Shown here: one piece after another, positions 6,329-58,039 of the stretch
Numbering within the stretch: the stretch's first letter is position 1
How the letters are laid out: the number at the start of each line of letters is the position of its first letter
Notes under the pieces: generated by a model
Told to the model about the DNA's origin: nothing
What the model saw: only the letters and a program-made list of their open reading frames with translations
The model's database searches: none
Sequence record: OK076929.1
Source of the DNA: Escherichia phage vB_EcoM_C2-3
Direction: 5' to 3' (one strand)
DNA: 64,000 nt
Program-made: the position numbers and the translations under genes

Positions 6329-6859
<531 letters not shown>

Positions 6860-6918: not shown

Positions 6919-7335
6919 ATGACTCGTATTAATTTGACTTTAGTATCTGAACTTGCTGATCAACATTTAATCGCAGAATACCGTGAATTGCCGCGTGTTT
7001 TTGGTATAGTTCGTAAGCATGTGGCAAACGGTAAGCGCGTTAAAGATTTTAAAATATCTTCTAAATTTATTTTAGGTTCTGGTCATGTTACTTTCTTTTA
7101 CGATAAGTTAGAATTTTTGCGAAAGCGTCAATCGGACATTATAACGGAATGCTTAAAACGCGGGTTCAGTATAAAAGATACTGAAGTTCCTGACATCAGC
7201 GATATTCCAGTAGAATGGAAAAATGATTATAATCCATGCAAATCAGCTATTAAGTTGAGTCAACAACGACTCGATGAAAAAATTTTAATGAAGCCACACT
7301 GGTATAAGTATTACGGCAAAAATATTTACATTTAA
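6919..7335 (+). CDS. denV: endonuclease V (pyrimidine dimer DNA glycosylase)
   Basis: 138 aa, recognised as T4 endo V ([29 protein letters not shown]...). Confidence 0.9.
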
Positions 7336-7481
7336 ATAACATGGGAATAACCTGGACCTCATGATTCTGTGAGGGATTCCCGCCAACCTGTAATAAGGTC
7401 GAGCCCAAGTGCGGTAATGGGTAAATACAGAAATGGACAATTCATGCGCCATGGAATGGCCCAAACCTAGAGAGAACAAAA

Positions 7482-8021
7482 ATGAGAACATTTTTAACTG
7501 GTCCTTATCTATCCCTGATGAATGCTTTTACACACCATTCTGATGCTAGAGTAGAAGAAATTTGTAAAAACGAATATATCCCGCCATTTGAAGACTTACT
7601 TAAACAGTATTGTACACTTCGACTAGATGGTGGGCGTCAATCTGGTAAATCAACTGCAGTAACTAATTTTGCCGCTAATTGGTTGTATGACGGTGGAACA
7701 GTTATTGTTCTTTCTAATACTTCAGCTTACGCTAAAATTTCCGCAGATAATATTAAAAAGGAATTTTCGCGTTATTCTAATGATGATATACGTTTTCGTT
7801 TATTTACTGATTCTGTGCGCAGTTTTATTGGTAATAAAGGAAGCAAGTTCAGAGGTTTATCACTTTCGCGAATTTTGTATATAATTGATGAGCCTGTCAA
7901 ATCTCCTGATATGGATAAGATTTATAGTGTCCATATTGACACTGTACACTGCTGCTGTAATATTAAATGTTGCATTGGTGGTATTACTCGTCCACAGTTT
8001 TTCGTAATCGGAATGCAATGA
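7482..8021 (+). CDS. hypothetical P-loop protein (179 aa)
   Basis: Walker A-like GGRQSGKST; Cys-rich C-terminus. Confidence 0.5.
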   Translation: MRTFLTGPYLSLMNAFTHHSDARVEEICKNEYIPPFEDLLKQYCTLRLDGGRQSGKSTAVTNFAANWLYDGGTVIVLSNTSAYAKISADNIKKEFSRYSNDDIRFRLFTDSVRSFIGNKGSKFRGLSLSRILYIIDEPVKSPDMDKIYSVHIDTVHCCCNIKCCIGGITRPQFFVIGMQ

Positions 8022-16215: not shown

Positions 16216-17225
16216 TGAAAACAGTAATGAAAAGCTATTTTGGTAGTCATCTTTATGGAACTTCTACCCCAGAATCTGATGTAGATTTTAAAGAAATCTT
16301 TGTTCCTCCTGCTCGTGATATTCTTATTGGAAATGTTAAAGAGCACATGAGTAAAAACACTAACAACACATCATCTAAAAACACTAAAGATGATATTGAC
16401 CATGAACTATACAGTCTTAAATATTTCTTTAAATTAGCAGCAGATGGTGAAACTGTAGCGTTAGATATGCTTCACACTCCACCTGAACTAGTGGTTAAAT
16501 CTGATTTGCCTGATGTGTGGAAGTTTATTCAAGACAACCGTTCTCGTTTTTATACGACTAACATGAAATCATATTTAGGATATGTCCGCAAGCAAGCTTC
16601 TAAATACGGCGTCAAGGGTTCTCGTTTGGCTGCATTACGTGATGTATTGAAAGTAGTTAATCAAATCCCTGAGCAATGGGTTGATTACCAAGAAGACGGT
16701 TCCATTAAGCAGCGTCGTACTAAAGTTGAAGATATTAAGCATCGTCTTCCAGAAAACGAATTCTGTGAATGGGTGTTCCATAATCATGAGAAAACAGGCC
16801 CACAAACGTTCTACACTGTGTTGGGTCGTAAATATCAGACAACGCTTTCTCTTATTGAGCTTAAGCAGTCACTGAACAAATTAGATGCTGAATACGGTGA
16901 ACGTGCTCGTAAGGCCGAAGCCAATGAAGGTATTGACTGGAAAGCTCTGAGTCATGCTTGCCGTGGTGGACTCCAACTATTGGAAATTTACAAAACTGGT
17001 GACTTAGTCTATCCACTCAAAGATGCTCCATTTATTCTCGACGTGAAGTTGGGTAAGCATCCATTTAAAACAGTTCAAGAGTTTTTGGAAGATGTGGTCG
17101 ATCAAGTAGAAGCAGCATCTACTGAAGCTTCTAAGAACGGTATGCAGCAAAAAGTGGACATGGGTTTTTGGGATGACTTCCTTGAGAAGGTCTATCTTGA
17201 AAACCACCGAAGTTATTATAAATGA
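16212..17225 (+). CDS. nucleotidyltransferase-fold protein (Pol-beta-like NTase motif)
   Basis: hG[GS]x(9-13)DhD pattern: FGSHLYGTSTPESDVDF near N-terminus; 337 aa. Confidence 0.5.
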   Translation: MMKTVMKSYFGSHLYGTSTPESDVDFKEIFVPPARDILIGNVKEHMSKNTNNTSSKNTKDDIDHELYSLKYFFKLAADGETVALDMLHTPPELVVKSDLPDVWKFIQDNRSRFYTTNMKSYLGYVRKQASKYGVKGSRLAALRDVLKVVNQIPEQWVDYQEDGSIKQRRTKVEDIKHRLPENEFCEWVFHNHEKTGPQTFYTVLGRKYQTTLSLIELKQSLNKLDAEYGERARKAEANEGIDWKALSHACRGGLQLLEIYKTGDLVYPLKDAPFILDVKLGKHPFKTVQEFLEDVVDQVEAASTEASKNGMQQKVDMGFWDDFLEKVYLENHRSYYK

Positions 17226-17496: not shown

Positions 17497-17756
17497 CAGT
17501 TTACGTAGATGTTTTAATGAATCATGGATGGAAACTTCGCGGTCATCCAACTAAAAATTGTCATATGTTCACTGATGGAGATATTGAAGAGCTTCACGAA
17601 ATGGCAGAAGCAATAGGAATGAAACGTTCTTGGTTTCAAGATAAACGCATTAAACATTATGACTTACACGCTCGGCGACGCCAAAAAGCTGTAGAACTTG
17701 GAGCTGTAGAAGTATCTCGTCGCGAAGCAGTAAAAATTTGGCAAACATTAAAATAA
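17493..17756 (+). CDS. hypothetical protein (87 aa)
   Basis: ORF track. Confidence 0.5.
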   Translation: MTVYVDVLMNHGWKLRGHPTKNCHMFTDGDIEELHEMAEAIGMKRSWFQDKRIKHYDLHARRRQKAVELGAVEVSRREAVKIWQTLK

Positions 17757-17759
17757 ATT

Positions 17760-17789
17760 GTTTACAGAAGGGTAGTAGTGTGATACTAT
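17760..17789 (+). promoter_or_regulatory. early promoter
   Basis: gtttac 17760-17765, tactat -10. Confidence 0.45.
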
Positions 17790-17825
17790 TACCCTATCAA
17801 AACAAATGTGAAATTGGAGAATAAA

Positions 17826-18794
17826 ATGAAAACTGTAACTATCAATAAGGGTATCTACTTCGGTAAAGAAATCTCTGGAACTTTTGAGCTCTTAGGCGAA
17901 TGGTTCCCAGATAATGCTCCGGTAGATGCACAAGGAGATGGTAAAGTTTTTGTTGAAATTGACGGTAAACGTCGCGGTGTTTGGGTTTACAAATCAGACA
18001 TTTCATATGATGGTGTAAAAGTTGAAGAAGTTAAAGAATCATATGAAGATATGAAAACCCGCATTAATAAAAGATTTAATGTTATGGGAATGATGACGAA
18101 TGGTATTATTAACGGAAACATTCGTTCATTAATTATCTCGGGAGCAGCAGGTATTGGTAAAACGTATTCTTTAGATAAAGCTTTAAATAAAGCAAATGAT
18201 ATTGGATACATTGAATATAAAAGCATTAACGGTAAAATCTCTGGTATCGGTCTTTATGAACAGCTCTGGAATAATCGTGAAGAGAATTCTGTCCTTTTGA
18301 TTGATGATGTGGATGTTTTCTCTGATATGGACATTCTTAATCTTCTGAAAGCTGCTCTGGACACTGGAGAGACCCGTAAAGTCTGCTGGAGCACTGCATC
18401 TTCTTACTTAGAAGAAAAAGGCATTGAGCGTGAGTTTGAATTTAAAGGAACGATTGTTTTTATCACAAACGTTGACATTGACCGCGAATTAGACCGTGGT
18501 ACTAAACTTGCTCCACATTTACAAGCATTAGTGTCCCGCTCGGTTTATTTGGATTTGGGTGTTCACACTAATGAAGAAATTATGGTCAGGGTTGAAGATG
18601 TTATTCTTTCAACTGACATGATGCAAAAGCGCGGTCTTTCTGATGAAGAAACTTATAAAGCATTATCATGGATGAAAGTCAATGTTAACCGTTTACGCAA
18701 TGTTTCACTGCGTACTGCACTTTATCTTGCTGACTTTATTATGACCGACAAAAACGGTTGGCAAGAAATCGCTGAGGTTACTCTTCTGAAATAA
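17826..18794 (+). CDS. P-loop ATPase (Walker A SGAAGIGKT, Walker B LLIDDVD)
   Basis: Start moved to ATG 17826 after GGAG; Walker A and B motifs in central domain. Confidence 0.55.
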   Translation: MKTVTINKGIYFGKEISGTFELLGEWFPDNAPVDAQGDGKVFVEIDGKRRGVWVYKSDISYDGVKVEEVKESYEDMKTRINKRFNVMGMMTNGIINGNIRSLIISGAAGIGKTYSLDKALNKANDIGYIEYKSINGKISGIGLYEQLWNNREENSVLLIDDVDVFSDMDILNLLKAALDTGETRKVCWSTASSYLEEKGIEREFEFKGTIVFITNVDIDRELDRGTKLAPHLQALVSRSVYLDLGVHTNEEIMVRVEDVILSTDMMQKRGLSDEETYKALSWMKVNVNRLRNVSLRTALYLADFIMTDKNGWQEIAEVTLLK

Positions 18795-26138: not shown

Positions 26139-26315
26139 ATGAAAACCGAATTGGTTTATACTGAAAAGTTAAATGGCGGTAAGGTTTGGAAACTTTTTAT
26201 TAAAGGACATTCTACGGACCCTCATATGACCACTTGCGTAGGAACCTATTCTCGTCCTACTAAAAAGATGATTCGACAGTATAAACGATTGCATCGAATG
26301 TTTTACAATACTTAA
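26139..26315 (+). CDS. hypothetical small protein (58 aa) sharing C-terminal 14 aa with upstream ORF
   Basis: C-terminus IRQYKRLHRMFYNT duplicates IRQYKRLHQMFYNT of 25617 ORF; about 44-bp direct repeat. Confidence 0.4.
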   Translation: MKTELVYTEKLNGGKVWKLFIKGHSTDPHMTTCVGTYSRPTKKMIRQYKRLHRMFYNT

Positions 26316-50816: not shown

Positions 50817-52244
50817 GTGGTAGAAATTATTCTTTCTCATCTCATATTTGATCAAGCTTATTTTTCAAAAGTTTGGCCATATATGGATTCAGAATATTTT
50901 GAAAGTGGTCCAGCTAAAAATACATTCAAATTAATTAAATCCCATGTTAATGAGTATCATAGCGTTCCATCTATTAATGCGTTAAATGTTGCATTAGAAA
51001 ATAGTTCATTTACTGAAACAGAATATTCTGGTGTAAAAACACTTATTTCAAAACTGGCTGATTCTCCAGAAGACCACAGCTGGTTAGTAAAAGAAACAGA
51101 AAAATATGTTCAGCAAAGGGCGATGTTTAATGCTACGTCTAAAATAATCGAAATTCAAACTAATGCTGAGCTTCCTCCGGAAAAACGAAATAAGAAAATG
51201 CCAGATGTAGGTGCTATTCCTGACATCATGCGCCAAGCATTATCAATTTCATTTGATAGCTACGTTGGTCATGATTGGATGGATGACTATGAAGCGCGTT
51301 GGCTATCTTATATGAATAAAGCTCGTAAGGTTCCATTTAAACTCAGAATTCTAAACAAAATTACTAAAGGCGGAGCTGAGACTGGAACACTGAACGTTTT
51401 AATGGCTGGCGTTAACGTTGGTAAATCATTAGGATTGTGTTCATTAGCGGCAGATTATTTACAGCTCGGACATAATGTTCTTTACATTTCCATGGAAATG
51501 GCAGAAGAAGTCTGTGCTAAACGTATTGACGCTAATATGCTTGATGTTTCTCTTGATGACATTGATGATGGGCATATTTCTTACGCTGAATATAAAGGAA
51601 AAATGGAAAAATGGCGTGAGAAATCTACCCTTGGTCGTTTAATCGTTAAACAGTATCCTACTGGTGGAGCAGACGCTAACACATTCAGGTCTCTCTTGAA
51701 TGAATTGAAGCTCAAGAAGAATTTTGTTCCAACAATCATTATTGTCGACTATCTAGGTATTTGTAAATCTTGCCGCATTAGAGTTTATTCAGAAAATAGT
51801 TACACAACTGTTAAAGCTATCGCAGAGGAATTGCGTGCTCTGGCTGTTGAAACCGAAACTGTTCTTTGGACTGCAGCTCAGGTTGGTAAACAGGCTTGGG
51901 ATTCTTCCGATGTTAACATGAGCGATATTGCAGAATCTGCTGGTCTTCCAGCAACAGCTGATTTTATGCTTGCGGTCATTGAAACCGAGGAGCTAGCAGC
52001 TGCTGAACAACAACTTATTAAGCAAATCAAATCACGATATGGTGATAAGAATAAGTGGAATAAGTTTTTGATGGGTGTTCAAAAAGGAAATCAAAAATGG
52101 GTAGAAATTGAACAAGATTCTACTCCAACTGAAGTGAGTGAAGTAGCAGGTTCACAACAGATTCAGGCTGAGCAGAATCGCTATCAAAGAAATGAATCCA
52201 CTCGAGCTCAGTTAGATGCTTTGGCAAATGAATTAAAATTTTAG
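50817..52244 (+). CDS. 41: replicative DNA helicase gp41
   Basis: 475 aa, Walker A GVNVGKS, recognised as T4 gp41; GTG start. Confidence 0.95.
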   Translation: MVEIILSHLIFDQAYFSKVWPYMDSEYFESGPAKNTFKLIKSHVNEYHSVPSINALNVALENSSFTETEYSGVKTLISKLADSPEDHSWLVKETEKYVQQRAMFNATSKIIEIQTNAELPPEKRNKKMPDVGAIPDIMRQALSISFDSYVGHDWMDDYEARWLSYMNKARKVPFKLRILNKITKGGAETGTLNVLMAGVNVGKSLGLCSLAADYLQLGHNVLYISMEMAEEVCAKRIDANMLDVSLDDIDDGHISYAEYKGKMEKWREKSTLGRLIVKQYPTGGADANTFRSLLNELKLKKNFVPTIIIVDYLGICKSCRIRVYSENSYTTVKAIAEELRALAVETETVLWTAAQVGKQAWDSSDVNMSDIAESAGLPATADFMLAVIETEELAAAEQQLIKQIKSRYGDKNKWNKFLMGVQKGNQKWVEIEQDSTPTEVSEVAGSQQIQAEQNRYQRNESTRAQLDALANELKF

Positions 52245-52302: not shown

Positions 52303-52485
52303 ATGGAATTAGTAAAGGTAGTTTTTATGGGGTGGTTTAAGAATGAAAGCATGTTTACTAAAGAAACCACAATGATGAAAGATGACGTTCAATGGGCTAC
52401 TACTCAATATGCTGAAGTTAATAAAGCATTAGTTAAAGCTTTCATTGATGACAAGAAAGTATGTGAAGTAGATTGCCGAGGATAA
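52303..52485 (+). CDS. dmd: Dmd (discriminator of mRNA degradation; antitoxin against RnlA/LsoA)
   Basis: 60 aa, recognised as T4 Dmd. Confidence 0.85.
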   Translation: MELVKVVFMGWFKNESMFTKETTMMKDDVQWATTQYAEVNKALVKAFIDDKKVCEVDCRG

Positions 52486-52804: not shown

Positions 52805-53098
52805 ATGAAAAAATTTATCTTTGCTACAATTTTTGCTTTAGCTTCTTGTGCTGCTCAGCCTGCTATGGCAGGTTATGATAAAGATTTGTGTGAATGGTCT
52901 ATGACTGCGGATCAGACTGAAGTTGAAACTCAAATTGAAGCAGATATTATGAATATCGTTGAGCGCGATCGTCCTGAAATGAAAGCTGAAGTGCAAAAAC
53001 AGCTTAAGTCTGGTGGTGTAATGCAGTATAATTATGTTCTGTATTGCGATAAAAACTTTAATAACAAAAATATCATCGCTGAAGTGGTAGGTGAGTAA
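52805..53098 (+). CDS. sp: Spackle periplasmic protein Sp
   Basis: 97 aa with signal peptide, recognised as T4 Sp. Confidence 0.8.
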   Translation: MKKFIFATIFALASCAAQPAMAGYDKDLCEWSMTADQTEVETQIEADIMNIVERDRPEMKAEVQKQLKSGGVMQYNYVLYCDKNFNNKNIIAEVVGE

Positions 53099-53110: not shown

Positions 53111-53467
53111 ATGCATAGTTCTGAATTTTCATATTTAAAAATGGAAAAAATTTCATACGATTTTATAGATGAAAAGGTTTATTACAGTTTCCATGAACCA
53201 CGTTTTAATAGTGAGGTTGGGTTTATTGTAGTAAAAGACAATTTCATTTTAAAGATATATTCGGCATTAAAGGATTTTCACTACGAAAATATTAACCTAA
53301 AATTTGATAAAGAAAACGTTCGTAATTGTGCAGTAACAATTACAGGAAATAAAGGCACATGTGTTATGCTATCTGATGAAATTAATGATTTGCTAAATGA
53401 TGCCGAAAAGGTTGCTATTCCATCTATTGATGACCAAATTTTTAATGCTTTTATGAATAGAGGTTAA
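53111..53467 (+). CDS. hypothetical protein (118 aa; T4 61.2 position)
   Basis: ORF track. Confidence 0.55.
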   Translation: MHSSEFSYLKMEKISYDFIDEKVYYSFHEPRFNSEVGFIVVKDNFILKIYSALKDFHYENINLKFDKENVRNCAVTITGNKGTCVMLSDEINDLLNDAEKVAIPSIDDQIFNAFMNRG

Positions 53468-53468
53468 T

Positions 53469-53633
53469 ATGAAAACATATAAAGAATTTATCAAAGAAGA
53501 TATGGTTGCTGGAGATTCAGGTGGTAATCCTGAAAATATCTCTACTGGAACAACATCAGGTGCTGTAGTAAATAAAGGTCCTGAACAGATTCCTAAAAAG
53601 AAAAAAGAGGAATCTAAAGAAAAAGAAGAGTAA
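53469..53633 (+). CDS. hypothetical small protein (54 aa) with CTS-like N-terminus MKTYKEFIKE
   Basis: Below ORF-track cutoff; N-terminus matches internal-protein capsid targeting pattern. Confidence 0.4.
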   Translation: MKTYKEFIKEDMVAGDSGGNPENISTGTTSGAVVNKGPEQIPKKKKEESKEKEE

Positions 53634-53636
53634 AGA

Positions 53637-54665
53637 ATGTCATCAATACCTTGGATTGATAATGAGTTTGCATATCGTGCATTAGCTCATTTACCTAAAT
53701 TCACACAAGTAAATAATAGTTCAACTTTTAAATTACGGTTTAGATGCCCAGTTTGTGGAGATTCAAAAACCGACCAAAATAAAGCCCGTGGATGGTATTA
53801 TGGTGATAATAATGAAGGAAATATTCATTGTTATAACTGTAACTATCATGCGCCAATCGGAATATATTTAAAGGAGTTTGAACCTGATTTATATCGTGAG
53901 TATATCTTTGAAATAAGAAAAGAAAAAGGTAAAAGTCGTCCAGTAGAAAAACCTAAAGAACTTCCTAAACATCCTGAGAAGAAAATAATTAAATCTCTTC
54001 CGTCATGTGTTAGATTAGATAAACTGACGGAAGACCATCCAATTATAAAATATGTAAAAGCTCGTTGTATTCCAAAGGATAAATGGAAATATCTTTGGTT
54101 TACAACCGAATGGCCTAAATTGGTTAATAGCATAGCACCGGGAACATATAAAAAGGAAATACCTGAGCCTCGTCTTGTTATTCCAATTTATAATGCTAAT
54201 GGAAAAGCTGAGTCTTTTCAAGGACGTGCATTAAAGAAAGATGCTCCTCAAAAATATATCACCATCAAAGCTTATCCTGAGGCAACAAAAATATATGGAG
54301 TCGAACGAGTTAAAGATGGTGATGTATATGTTCTAGAAGGACCTATAGATTCACTTTTTATTGAAAATGGTATAGCTATTACGGGTGGTCAATTAGACCT
54401 AGAAGTTGTTCCATTTAAAGATAGACGTGTGTGGGTTTTAGATAATGAACCTCGTCATCCTGACACTATTAAGCGAATGACTAAATTAGTTGATGCAGGA
54501 GAAAGGGTTATGTTTTGGGATAAATCTCCCTGGAAATCAAAAGATGTTAATGATATGATTAGAAAGGAAGGTGCAACCACTGAACAAATTATGGAATATA
54601 TGAAAAATAATATTGCCCAGGGGTTGATGGCTAAAATGCGGCTATCTAAATATGCTAAGATTTAA
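53637..54665 (+). CDS. 61: DNA primase gp61
   Basis: 342 aa; zinc finger CPVCGDSK...CYNC; recognised as T4 gp61. Confidence 0.95.
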   Translation: MSSIPWIDNEFAYRALAHLPKFTQVNNSSTFKLRFRCPVCGDSKTDQNKARGWYYGDNNEGNIHCYNCNYHAPIGIYLKEFEPDLYREYIFEIRKEKGKSRPVEKPKELPKHPEKKIIKSLPSCVRLDKLTEDHPIIKYVKARCIPKDKWKYLWFTTEWPKLVNSIAPGTYKKEIPEPRLVIPIYNANGKAESFQGRALKKDAPQKYITIKAYPEATKIYGVERVKDGDVYVLEGPIDSLFIENGIAITGGQLDLEVVPFKDRRVWVLDNEPRHPDTIKRMTKLVDAGERVMFWDKSPWKSKDVNDMIRKEGATTEQIMEYMKNNIAQGLMAKMRLSKYAKI

Positions 54666-54862
54666 ATTAACCCAACTAAAGCAAATGCTAAATCTACGAA
54701 TGTATCAAGAGTAATTACTGGAATATTAACACCATGAGCAATAGCAATTGGTGATAAAACAAAATTCCAGAGTAAAATTCCTACCGTAGCAGAAATAGTA
54801 AAAGCTATACGTTTTTTATTACCTTTTATGGCATTAACAAGTGCCATTAATTTTTGTACCAT
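54662..54862 (-). CDS. hypothetical small membrane protein (66 aa), antisense to the early-gene cluster
   Basis: Only credible minus-strand ORF outside + genes; fills 61-56 gap; GGAGGA SD 4 nt before ATG; two hydrophobic segments. Confidence 0.45.
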   Translation of the reverse strand: MVQKLMALVNAIKGNKKRIAFTISATVGILLWNFVLSPIAIAHGVNIPVITLDTFVDLAFALVGLI

Positions 54863-54933
54863 ATGTCCTCCTTATTGCTTTATATATTTATTGTATAATT
54901 AATCTACTAACCCATGAATTGAAAGGAAAAATA

Positions 54934-55452
54934 ATGGCATACTTTAATGAATGTTCACAACTGATTGAAGGCGCTGATAAAGCTCAAAATGAATACTGGG
55001 ATATTCTCGGTGATGAAAAAGACCCGCTGCAAGTTATGCTTGATATGCAGAAATCTCTTCAGGTTCGTTTAGCTAAAGATAAACCTGAATATAACCGTCA
55101 TCCTGATGATTTGGCTACCGCAGGCGAAGTTGTTGATTGGTTGCGTAATCAGAAAGATTATATTGATGATGAATTCCGCGAACTATTGACTTCTCTTGGT
55201 GGTATGAGCAATGGTGAAAAAGATGCATCTGCTGTATGGAAGCCTTGGAAAGCTCAACATGGTGAACGACGTGAAACTCTGATTACTGATTTGTCTCCAC
55301 AAGACCAGTTGGAAATTAAATTCGAAATGATTGATATTCTTCATTTCGTTCTGAACATGTTCCAAGGTCTCGGTCTTACGGCTGAAGAAATCTTTAAACT
55401 TTATTATTTGAAAAATGCTGAAAACTTCGCTCGTCAAGACCGAGGTTATTAA
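54934..55452 (+). CDS. 56: dCTPase/dUTPase gp56
   Basis: Start moved to MAYFNE; recognised as T4 gp56. Confidence 0.9.
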   Translation: MAYFNECSQLIEGADKAQNEYWDILGDEKDPLQVMLDMQKSLQVRLAKDKPEYNRHPDDLATAGEVVDWLRNQKDYIDDEFRELLTSLGGMSNGEKDASAVWKPWKAQHGERRETLITDLSPQDQLEIKFEMIDILHFVLNMFQGLGLTAEEIFKLYYLKNAENFARQDRGY

Positions 55453-55676
55453 TGGCTCGTTTAAATAAACGCCAGCTTAAGAAAGCCCGCAAGAAACGTA
55501 TTGACCAGCTATTTAAAAATTATGACAAAGAGCTCACATACGAGCTCTTATCTAATCAGCTTCGTGCAGTTGATTGGGGTTTAGAAGAAGGTCTTGATGA
55601 AATTTTTGTCAGTAAAGAAGCCTTAAAATTAATTATAGAGCATTCAAATGAAAATATCCAAAGAAGAATTTATTAG
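55452..55676 (+). CDS. hypothetical protein (74 aa)
   Basis: ORF track; ATGA-type overlap with gene 56 stop. Confidence 0.5.
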   Translation: MARLNKRQLKKARKKRIDQLFKNYDKELTYELLSNQLRAVDWGLEEGLDEIFVSKEALKLIIEHSNENIQRRIY

Positions 55677-55821
55677 ACGACAAAAAGCTTTAATTAATTT
55701 ACACGAGTGGTATGCCTATCAACTTAAAGTAGATAGCTCTAATATAAATGCTGTAATGGCTTTATATAAACAAATTCAAGATGAACACGAATTCCTGGCA
55801 CAAGTTTTCATTGAAGACTGA
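55648..55821 (+). CDS. hypothetical small protein (57 aa)
   Basis: Small ORF overlapping upstream gene in another frame. Confidence 0.3.
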   Translation: MKISKEEFIRRQKALINLHEWYAYQLKVDSSNINAVMALYKQIQDEHEFLAQVFIED

Positions 55822-55829
55822 TATAAATA
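55822..55829 (+). promoter_or_regulatory. late promoter (TATAAATA) upstream of soc
   Basis: Exact TATAAATA about 30 nt before soc ATG. Confidence 0.55.
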
Positions 55830-55860
55830 CACCTGTAATTAAACAATAAAGGAGTTTATT

Positions 55861-56097
55861 ATGGGTGGTTTCGTTAACATCAAGACCTTTACTCATCCAG
55901 CAGGTGAAGGCAAAGAAGTTAAAGGTATGGAAGTTTCTGTAGCATTTGATGTATATTCAAATGAACACCGTATTGCAGATTCTCATTATCAAATCTTTCC
56001 GTCAGAAAAAGCAGCTTATTCTGATGTAGTTTCCGATGCAGCAACTTGGAAAACTAAGAATGCTGCAATGTTTACACCTACAGAAATAGGTGGTTAA
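55861..56097 (+). CDS. soc: small outer capsid protein Soc
   Basis: 78 aa, clear similarity to T4 Soc (GYVNIKTF...SVAF...HYQ.FPSEKAAYS). Confidence 0.85.
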   Translation: MGGFVNIKTFTHPAGEGKEVKGMEVSVAFDVYSNEHRIADSHYQIFPSEKAAYSDVVSDAATWKTKNAAMFTPTEIGG

Positions 56098-57415: not shown

Positions 57416-57568
57416 ACAGAGATATGACGCTAGAAGAGGCCAAGGCTAAAGCAAATGAAGCATTGGATTTGCTTCTTAAAATTGGCAGTAAAATGATGGA
57501 AGAAAATGAGAAATATATCCAGGAAAACAAAATTCCTGACGGCCCATTAGTAGGCAAGAGGAAATCAC

Positions 57569-58039
57569 ATGATTGAAGTAGCAAAACATTATTCAATAGA
57601 ATTTATGTCTAAAGAAGGTAAATCAGTAAATACACTTGACAAAAAGTGCTCATTAATTATTCCTTTAGCAGAAAATCCGGATATTTTAATTAAAGATATA
57701 AAAGAAAGAAAATACCCAGAAAATGTTATTCTAATTATAAAGCATACTGAAGATATTTTGCAGAATACTGATTCACCGTTTTCTTCTTCTGAAGCTTTAA
57801 CTATTAAAGGCTATAAAAGAGCTCATGAATATGGTCTTTTTGACCTGTTTGAAGACGATAAAGTTAAATTAGCGAGTCAACCTTCTAAAAGTAAAACATT
57901 CATTATTGAAGATATTAAAGATATAAATGCATTCGTTAAGATGGTCTGGGCTCATTTTGATGTTGGACTACGCTGGAGAATGTCCGAAGAAGAAAGAAAG
58001 ATTATTGAAGCTAATCGTCAATTTGGTTTTTATCGCTAG
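57569..58039 (+). CDS. hypothetical protein (156 aa)
   Basis: ORF track. Confidence 0.5.

Follow-up and report, generated by a model that had tools for sequence, protein, structure and literature searches.

The locus

Between the genes for DNA primase (gene 61) and dCTPase/dUTPase (gene 56) of Escherichia phage vB_EcoM_C2-3, the minus strand carries an open reading frame (ORF) of 66 codons, which we analysed within the 64,000-nucleotide stretch of sequence record OK076929.1 referred to here as the window. A preliminary description, made from the letters of the window alone, had proposed it as a separate gene on the opposite strand for a small membrane protein, and the reading frame, the selection acting on it, its hydropathy and a structural model all agree with that proposal. 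A megablast search with window positions 53600-55500 returned 723 phage records, all of them T4-like Tequatrovirus and with a top identity of 98-99%, and by this comparison the window is a Tequatrovirus (T4-like) genome. Taken as a whole, the evidence makes it likely that the ORF encodes an uncharacterised micro-protein that occurs across Tevenvirinae, is probably expressed late and spans the inner membrane once. The features on which this description draws are listed below.

54662..54862, minus strand: coding sequence of the predicted 66-residue membrane micro-protein (MVQKLMALVNAIKGNKKRIAFTISATVGILLWNFVLSPIAIAHGVNIPVITLDTFVDLAFALVGLI), stop included (66 codons plus TAA; ORF list)
53637..54665, plus strand: gene 61 (DNA primase), the convergent neighbour (ORF list, megablast relatives)
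54934..55452, plus strand: gene 56 (dCTPase/dUTPase), the other neighbour (ORF list, megablast relatives)
54866..54871, minus strand: Shine-Dalgarno (SD) sequence GGAGGA, followed by CAT and then by the ATG (read from the sequence)
54885..54892, minus strand: T4 late-promoter-like box AATAAATA (consensus TATAAATA), ending 22 nt before the ATG (motif match)
54872..54899, plus strand: putative T4-type middle promoter for gene 56, with MotA box TTATTGCTTTA at 54872-54882, a spacer of 11 bp and the -10 element TATAAT at 54894-54899 (motif match only)
54828..54857, plus strand: weak terminator-like hairpin, ATGGCATTAACAAGTGCCAT then TAATTTTTGT, over ORF codons 2-12 (pattern scan and folding)

The ORF was confirmed at exactly 54662-54862 in both the sequence and the ORF list, and its end overlaps the stop of gene 61 as had been noted. 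The two coding sequences share the 4 nt TTAA at 54662-54665, with the ORF stop codon at 54662-54664 lying across the gene 61 TAA at 54663-54665. The statement that the ORF exactly fills the gap between genes 61 and 56 was too strong, as this gap (54666-54933) measures 268 nt and the ORF occupies 197 nt of it. The last 71 nt (54863-54933) lie outside the ORF and hold its SD and late box together with, on the opposite strand, the middle promoter and SD of gene 56. The GGAGGA ascribed to the ORF is indeed present, with the ATG following 3 nt after GGAGGA, or 4 nt after its GGAGG core, and a GGAG or AGGAG stands at the equivalent place in all 14 lineages examined.

A scan of the 64-kb window for other minus-strand ORFs with an ATG start in gaps between plus-strand genes yielded four (7285-7491, 26169-26294, 55762-55896 and 57476-57589), none of which has an SD or a promoter, and these were taken as spurious. 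Judged by such signals, the ORF is the only credible minus-strand gene in these gaps of the window.

Conservation and coding character

The window protein matches PHROG 2024 with an E value of 7.5e-31 (residues 2-66 against profile positions 1-65 of 65). It shares length, genomic slot and orientation with this family, which includes RB69ORF029w, and is a member of it; the family comes without a described function. Members of subtype A, subtype B and the Kanagawavirus type that were tested against PHROG 2024 matched at E = 1.7e-15 to 6.5e-28, and the Jiaodavirus protein has the same core motif as the members of that family. Searching with the window-type protein, tblastn found 692 phage records; identity runs at 90-100% within Tequatrovirus, with T4, T2, RB68 and PST among the matches, and at about 50% for both Mosigvirus and Gaprivervirus. 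A second subtype, first met as a tandem paralogue in VR26, is present in 129 records (Dhakavirus JS98, Kanagawavirus, Mosugukvirus PM2 and Klebsiella phages), and a third in 169 (Jiaodavirus, Citrobacter phage Merlin and Salmonella phage Melville). Together these amount to roughly 1,000 phage records that span at least nine genera of Tevenvirinae, with the gene in the same slot.

In every genome inspected the gene stands tail-to-tail with the primase gene, mostly with overlapping stops; this arrangement with gene 61 was seen in T4, RB69, JK42, VR26, JS98, PM2, ZX14, Kosakonia 305, PEi20, KEN37 and metagenomic contigs. Insertions occur only on the other side of the ORF and consist of dam (in T4), a small gene resembling nucleoside triphosphate pyrophosphohydrolases or a homing endonuclease gene. 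Three phages that lack the gene, namely Krischvirus GEC-3S, one Slopekvirus-like Klebsiella phage and one Acinetobacter phage, lack the slot as well, gene 61 there abutting the next gene; in an Aeromonas Tulanevirus, where the gene is also absent, the slot is a gap of 122 nt with no annotated gene.

Conservation of the reading frame in related phages had been suggested as a check, and when this was carried out the frame proved to be kept across 14 diverged lineages, with length differences of whole codons only. Most within-clade pairs gave a Nei-Gojobori ratio of nonsynonymous to synonymous substitution (dN/dS) of 0.12-0.37, the pair VR26a-TH40 giving 0.55; between clades, synonymous sites are saturated and the proteins can still be aligned at identities down to 18%. 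Variable sites are distributed over codon positions 1, 2 and 3 as 20, 7 and 30 (p = 0.0009). By this pattern of substitution, the ORF is a real protein-coding gene under purifying selection.

Two diverged paralogues stand in tandem between genes 56 and 61 of Gaprivervirus VR26 (2495-2692 and 2701-2901 of the locus excerpt); subtype A and subtype B are represented by one each. In its relative TH40 the second paralogue seems to have been degraded to a remnant (about 2693-2900 of the locus excerpt).

Putative signals for late transcription

All early and middle transcripts of T4 have one polarity, whereas late transcripts may have either (Geiduschek and Kassavetis, PMC2988020). The plus strand of the window, which carries genes 41, 61 and 56, corresponds to the early/middle gene strand of T4, and the ORF is encoded on the other strand; its polarity fits late and not early or middle transcription, a placement that by the T4 rule is open only to a late gene. 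The 50 listed late promoters of T4 include 32 with a perfect TATAAATA, and nine others have A at -13, which is the commonest natural variant (PMC2988020).

Upstream of the ORF, an ATAAATA core followed by the SD, and ending 14-22 nt before the ATG, is present in 13 of the 14 lineages, in flanks that are otherwise unalignable. The full box reads GATAAATA in T4 (NC_000866, 17709-17716), AATAAATA in RB69-like phages and CATAAATA in Gaprivervirus, while JS98, PM2 and PEi20 have other single-base variants at the first position. A perfect TATAAATA box is found in one Klebsiella phage, in Enterobacter ZX14 and in Kosakonia 305; Jiaodavirus has two copies of the core, and the fourteenth lineage, a metagenomic one, has the one-mismatch box TATTAATA.

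The ATAAATA core is four-fold depleted in the window, with 10 copies (at 1970, 5937, 6332, 6345, 8395, 12718, 26321, 40914, 54885 and 55823) compared with 41 +/- 6 in shuffled sequence. Several of the plus-strand copies stand just upstream of starts with an SD and ATG, two of them before the lysozyme gene e (6365) and one before a soc-like gene (55861). Given this depletion and the placement of copies before SD-ATG starts, the copy upstream of the ORF is unlikely to be accidental, and the scarcity of the motif suggests that the genome as a whole avoids late promoters arising by accident in the early region. Together, the conserved box and a polarity possible only for late transcripts (PMC2988020) bear out the proposal that the ORF is regulated separately from its neighbours, and on these signals we regard it as very probably a late gene.

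In the window, the late box falls within the spacer of the MotA-type promoter of gene 56, both being contained in the same 28 bp on opposite strands. The MotA middle-promoter consensus is (a/t)(a/t)(a/t)TGCTTtA placed 12 +/- 1 bp from TAtaaT (Hinton, PMC2988021). Such an overlap is not the general case, since in T4 and several genera dam or other genes lie in between. The interval had also been described as the oriA region of T4. In the T4 record, the rep_origin oriA is placed at position 16763, 22 nt inside the 5' end of gene 56, and its primer is given as the gene 56 transcript. The equivalent point in the window, about 22 nt inside gene 56, lies about 95 bp from the ATG of the ORF, and to that extent the description was apt; in T4 itself, however, dam separates the two by about 1 kb. 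Where dam is missing, competition between early and late promoters at gene 56 is conceivable from this layout.

A search for an intrinsic terminator 3' of the ORF on the minus strand found none. On the plus strand, the hairpin at 54828-54857 consists of an 8-bp stem followed by a T-run; it is identical in T4, and other clades have only loosely equivalent small hairpins. It may act as a weak terminator or attenuator of read-through from gene 61 toward gene 56, a function that we consider doubtful.

The predicted protein

Proteins of the family are 61-69 residues long, the window member having 66. An AlphaFold2 model built from a seven-sequence alignment has a mean predicted local distance difference test (pLDDT) score of 75 and places helices at residues 2-12, 16-42 and 52-62, with a loop at 43-51. 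The preliminary description had noted two hydrophobic segments, of which the first (about residues 19-42) is indeed transmembrane-like. The second (45-66) contains two conserved Asp residues, is modelled as the short helix 52-62 and is poorly hydrophobic in subtype B. Because of these acidic residues and this low hydrophobicity, a single span appears more likely than a two-span hairpin.

In the lineages tested, the N-terminal 18 residues carry a net charge of +4 to +5 and the part after residue 42 a net charge of 0 to -2, the values for the window protein being +5 and -2. By the positive-inside rule, the predicted topology therefore has the N-terminus inside and the C-terminus outside. In a 14-sequence alignment five residues (W32, N33, P38, G44 and P48) never vary, A40 and G64 hardly do, and position 53 is acidic in almost every sequence; the core motif reads W32-N33-[FYL]-x3-P38-x-A-x3-G44-[VL]-x2-P48-x-V-x-[LM]-[DE]. 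The conserved positions cluster in the juxtamembrane loop and in the half of the helix nearer the periplasm, and the N-terminus is variable except for its basic character.

Database comparison and annotation status

No entry of Pfam or NCBIfam matched the window protein, even at E <= 10, and six relatives compared with Pfam gave only sub-threshold chance matches (YwcE at 16 bits against a cut-off of 25). None of 14 family members matched any PADLOC model at E <= 1, and a sequence profile search of the PDB produced only chance matches, with YejA at E = 0.6. The only matches of Foldseek in BFVD came from the family itself. When 1.84 billion representative proteins were searched with a profile, six clusters came back, all of them the same family or fragments of it, with no bacterial or distant relatives. 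A full-text literature search found no paper on the ORF and no ribosome-profiling study of T4; a differential RNA sequencing (dRNA-seq) data set for T4 does exist (10.1101/2024.04.04.588121).

The gene was listed as RB69ORF029w (NP_861719.1) in the 2003 annotation of RB69, and hundreds of Tevenvirinae GenBank records have it as a "hypothetical protein" by the primase gene; it is unannotated in the RefSeq entries of T4, JS98, PEi20 and PP01. In the T4 sequence NC_000866 the ORF is found at 17738-17938 on the plus strand, within the 309-bp "empty" interval between dam and gene 61, and its product is 93.9% identical in amino acids to the window protein. The gene as such is thus not new to the databases; it is uncharacterised, and it is missing from the reference annotation of T4, the best-studied phage. 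In a few records it has been labelled "holin family protein" or "putative holin", and the name "Holin" is borne by a UniRef entry and by a BFVD match; these labels are unsupported.

Neighbouring genes

The local genes on the plus strand are 41, dmd, 61.4, spackle, a short 61.2, 61.1, 61 and 56, and dam, which lies between genes 61 and 56 in T4, is absent from this phage. The positions of those referred to in the text are as follows.

50817-52244, plus strand: gene 41
52303-52485, plus strand: dmd
52805-53098, plus strand: spackle
53111-53467, plus strand: short homologue of 61.2 (118 aa here versus 208 aa in T4)

Beyond gene 56, many close relatives have an annotated soc.2 or capsid-like gene, which replaces the segF-soc arrangement of T4. 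At the other end of the window, 11 transfer RNA (tRNA) genes are clustered at 245-1262 on the plus strand (Gln, Leu, Gly, Pro, Ser, Thr, Met(CAT), Tyr, Asn, His and Arg); T4 has eight tRNA genes.

Proposed function and alternatives

On its conservation and signals, the ORF is a bona fide T-even (Tevenvirinae) gene that was overlooked by the T4 reference annotation. We propose that it would be transcribed only after replication has started, by gp55/gp33/gp45-RNA polymerase, from its own (N)ATAAATA late promoter, with a strong SD for translation. As no terminator follows the ORF, the late transcript probably continues antisense into gene 61. The basic N-terminus (net +5) would stay in the cytoplasm, residues 19-42 or thereabouts would cross the inner membrane once, and the acidic C-terminal 24 residues would either be exposed to the periplasm or form a short amphipathic helix in the outer leaflet. 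The invariant Trp-Asn pair in the helix, together with the conserved loop, suggests helix-helix binding to another membrane protein of phage or host, and binding of a partner in this way is the mode of most characterised membrane micro-proteins. AcrZ, MgtR and KdpF belong to the same size class and likewise have a single span with few conserved intramembrane residues (W32-N33 and P38 in the ORF); unlike them, the ORF product is phage-encoded and predicted to be late, and since it is not homologous to them the likeness is an analogy of mechanism only.

As to what such a protein would do, we can offer only a guess, which we hold tentatively: it may take part in late envelope events, such as the triggering of holin T, lysis inhibition or membrane integrity, and would not itself be the holin. 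The exclusion or lysis-timing factor named as a candidate in the preliminary description is speculative. Superinfection exclusion or counter-defence, a mainly antisense-RNA effect and roles not yet conceived of are each less probable to us than this guess. In its size and anchoring it resembles the T4 antiholin RI, which is held by a signal-anchor-release (SAR) segment, both proteins being small and N-terminally anchored with a periplasmic C-terminus, but the periplasmic part would comprise 24 residues here compared with about 70 in RI. Kinship with the RI signal anchor was considered because the Tequatrovirus version shares the string FVLSP with it, and was rejected: aligning the family profile with T4 RI in hhalign gave a probability of 0.4% and an E value of 0.16 across 7 columns, the family as a whole does not conserve FVLSP, and its identity with RI is coincidental.

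Several points weigh against the picture of a late inner-membrane protein with a role in the envelope. Comparison with Pfam, NCBIfam, PADLOC and the PDB, the fold search and the comparison with RI turned up no characterised protein similar to this one, and the literature searched contained no transcript, ribosome footprint or peptide evidence for the ORF. The transmembrane segment is only moderately hydrophobic, and the topology is a prediction. The -13 base of the box is G in T4 and C in Gaprivervirus, both rarer variants than A, and the leader transcribed from the predicted promoter would be only about 10-16 nt long. Classical T4 genetics is not known to have placed any r, lysis or essential mutation in the interval between genes 56 and 61, which argues against a strong lysis or assembly phenotype in laboratory conditions.

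A different reading of a small, predicted late-expressed and membrane-embedded protein is that it is a holin or pinholin, permeabilising the inner membrane to release the endolysin, as the labels in a few database records imply. The ORF product is close in size to the pinholins of 68-71 aa, and as a predicted late inner-membrane protein it resembles T4 holin T (class III) and the small class I/II holins or pinholins lambda S and S68 of phage 21, with a predicted N-in topology like that of T. It differs from all three in having no sequence or profile similarity to them, no endolysin neighbour and no charged cytoplasmic C-terminal tail, and in probably spanning the membrane once. None of the holin families in Pfam or NCBIfam matches it even at E = 10, and no lysis cassette surrounds it: the lysozyme gene e (6365-6859) is 48 kb away, and the neighbours in the genomes examined are primase 61 and dCTPase 56. 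Its C-terminal 24 residues are hydrophobic with a net charge of -2 and its basic cluster is N-terminal, while the second hydrophobic stretch makes a poor transmembrane segment, above all in subtype B. A dual start of the lambda S kind, with M1 and M6, was considered as well; it is not conserved outside Tequatrovirus and one metagenomic lineage, which counts against a holin. Lysis by T4 is strictly dependent on t, and T4 t-null mutants fail to lyse despite an intact ORF, which is therefore insufficient as a holin; we regard this reading as highly improbable. Superinfection exclusion or counter-defence at the inner membrane, directed against incoming phage DNA or a membrane-bound abortive-infection system of the host, would suit the membrane location, the wealth of accessory genes in the region (spackle and dmd among them) and the apparent dispensability of the gene, none of the known essential loci lying between genes 56 and 61. 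The predicted late timing, however, fits exclusion poorly, since T4 Imm and Sp act within minutes of infection. Counter-defence genes are usually patchy and fast-evolving, whereas the ORF holds its slot throughout essentially all of the Tevenvirinae sampled and evolves under purifying selection, and no PADLOC-related signal was seen; this explanation is unlikely, too.

The key product might instead be the late antisense transcript, which would shut down gene 61 and, in this phage, the promoter of gene 56 and oriA by transcriptional interference or through double-stranded RNA. The missing terminator on the minus strand and the position of the late box (54885-54892) inside the spacer of the gene 56 promoter speak for this, and at several T4 sites both strands serve as templates for transcription at different times (PMC2988020). 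The locus also recalls the type I toxins hok, tisB and ldr, where likewise a small hydrophobic ORF lies on a messenger RNA that is fully complementary to an RNA of the other strand, here the early read-through from gene 61 to gene 56. Unlike in those systems, the complementarity is an ordinary consequence of a late gene lying inside an early transcription unit, and a search at the ORF for a dedicated antisense small RNA with its own promoter and terminator gave only generic sigma-70-like matches at chance level and one weak plus-strand hairpin. A role of the RNA alone would leave the purifying selection at the amino-acid level, the conserved SD and ATG and the invariant W-N...P...G...P unexplained, and the overlap of promoters is not general, T4 and several genera having other genes between the ORF and the promoter of gene 56. 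We therefore consider an RNA-only function very unlikely, though an antisense effect may well exist as a side effect. That the ORF is a chance reading frame in an AT-rich spacer, or an artefact of annotation, could be argued from its shortness, from the RefSeq entries in which it is unannotated and from the fact that no experimental evidence of expression was found. Against this, about 1,000 genomes belonging to at least nine genera have retained the frame, the start, the SD and the promoter box, and the substitutions are of the coding type; on sequence grounds a chance origin is effectively refuted, and we give it next to no credence.

Implications

For practical purposes the gain is modest, as automated pipelines already call the ORF as a hypothetical protein. 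Within its phage family T4 serves as the reference organism, and transcriptomic, proteomic and CRISPR interference screens reuse its annotation; a gene missing from NC_000866 is therefore invisible to studies that rely on that annotation. Once annotated, the ORF would offer a cheap and well-defined target, namely a gene of 201 bp that is apparently non-essential, with five invariant residues in a product predicted to be made late and to reside in the membrane. It also provides an example of a probable late gene placed tail-to-tail within an early replication-gene cluster, with a promoter interlocked in this phage with the middle promoter of gene 56 near the point equivalent to oriA.

More speculatively, and with considerable doubt on our part, the protein could be an unrecognised component of the T-even late envelope programme, for instance a third modulator of holin T and lysis inhibition that acts through a membrane helix beside the periplasmic RI and the cytoplasmic RIII, or else a protein that targets a conserved inner-membrane machine of the host. 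Were this so, its position on the "wrong" strand of an early region and its absence from the T4 reference annotation would explain why such a component escaped notice for 60 years.

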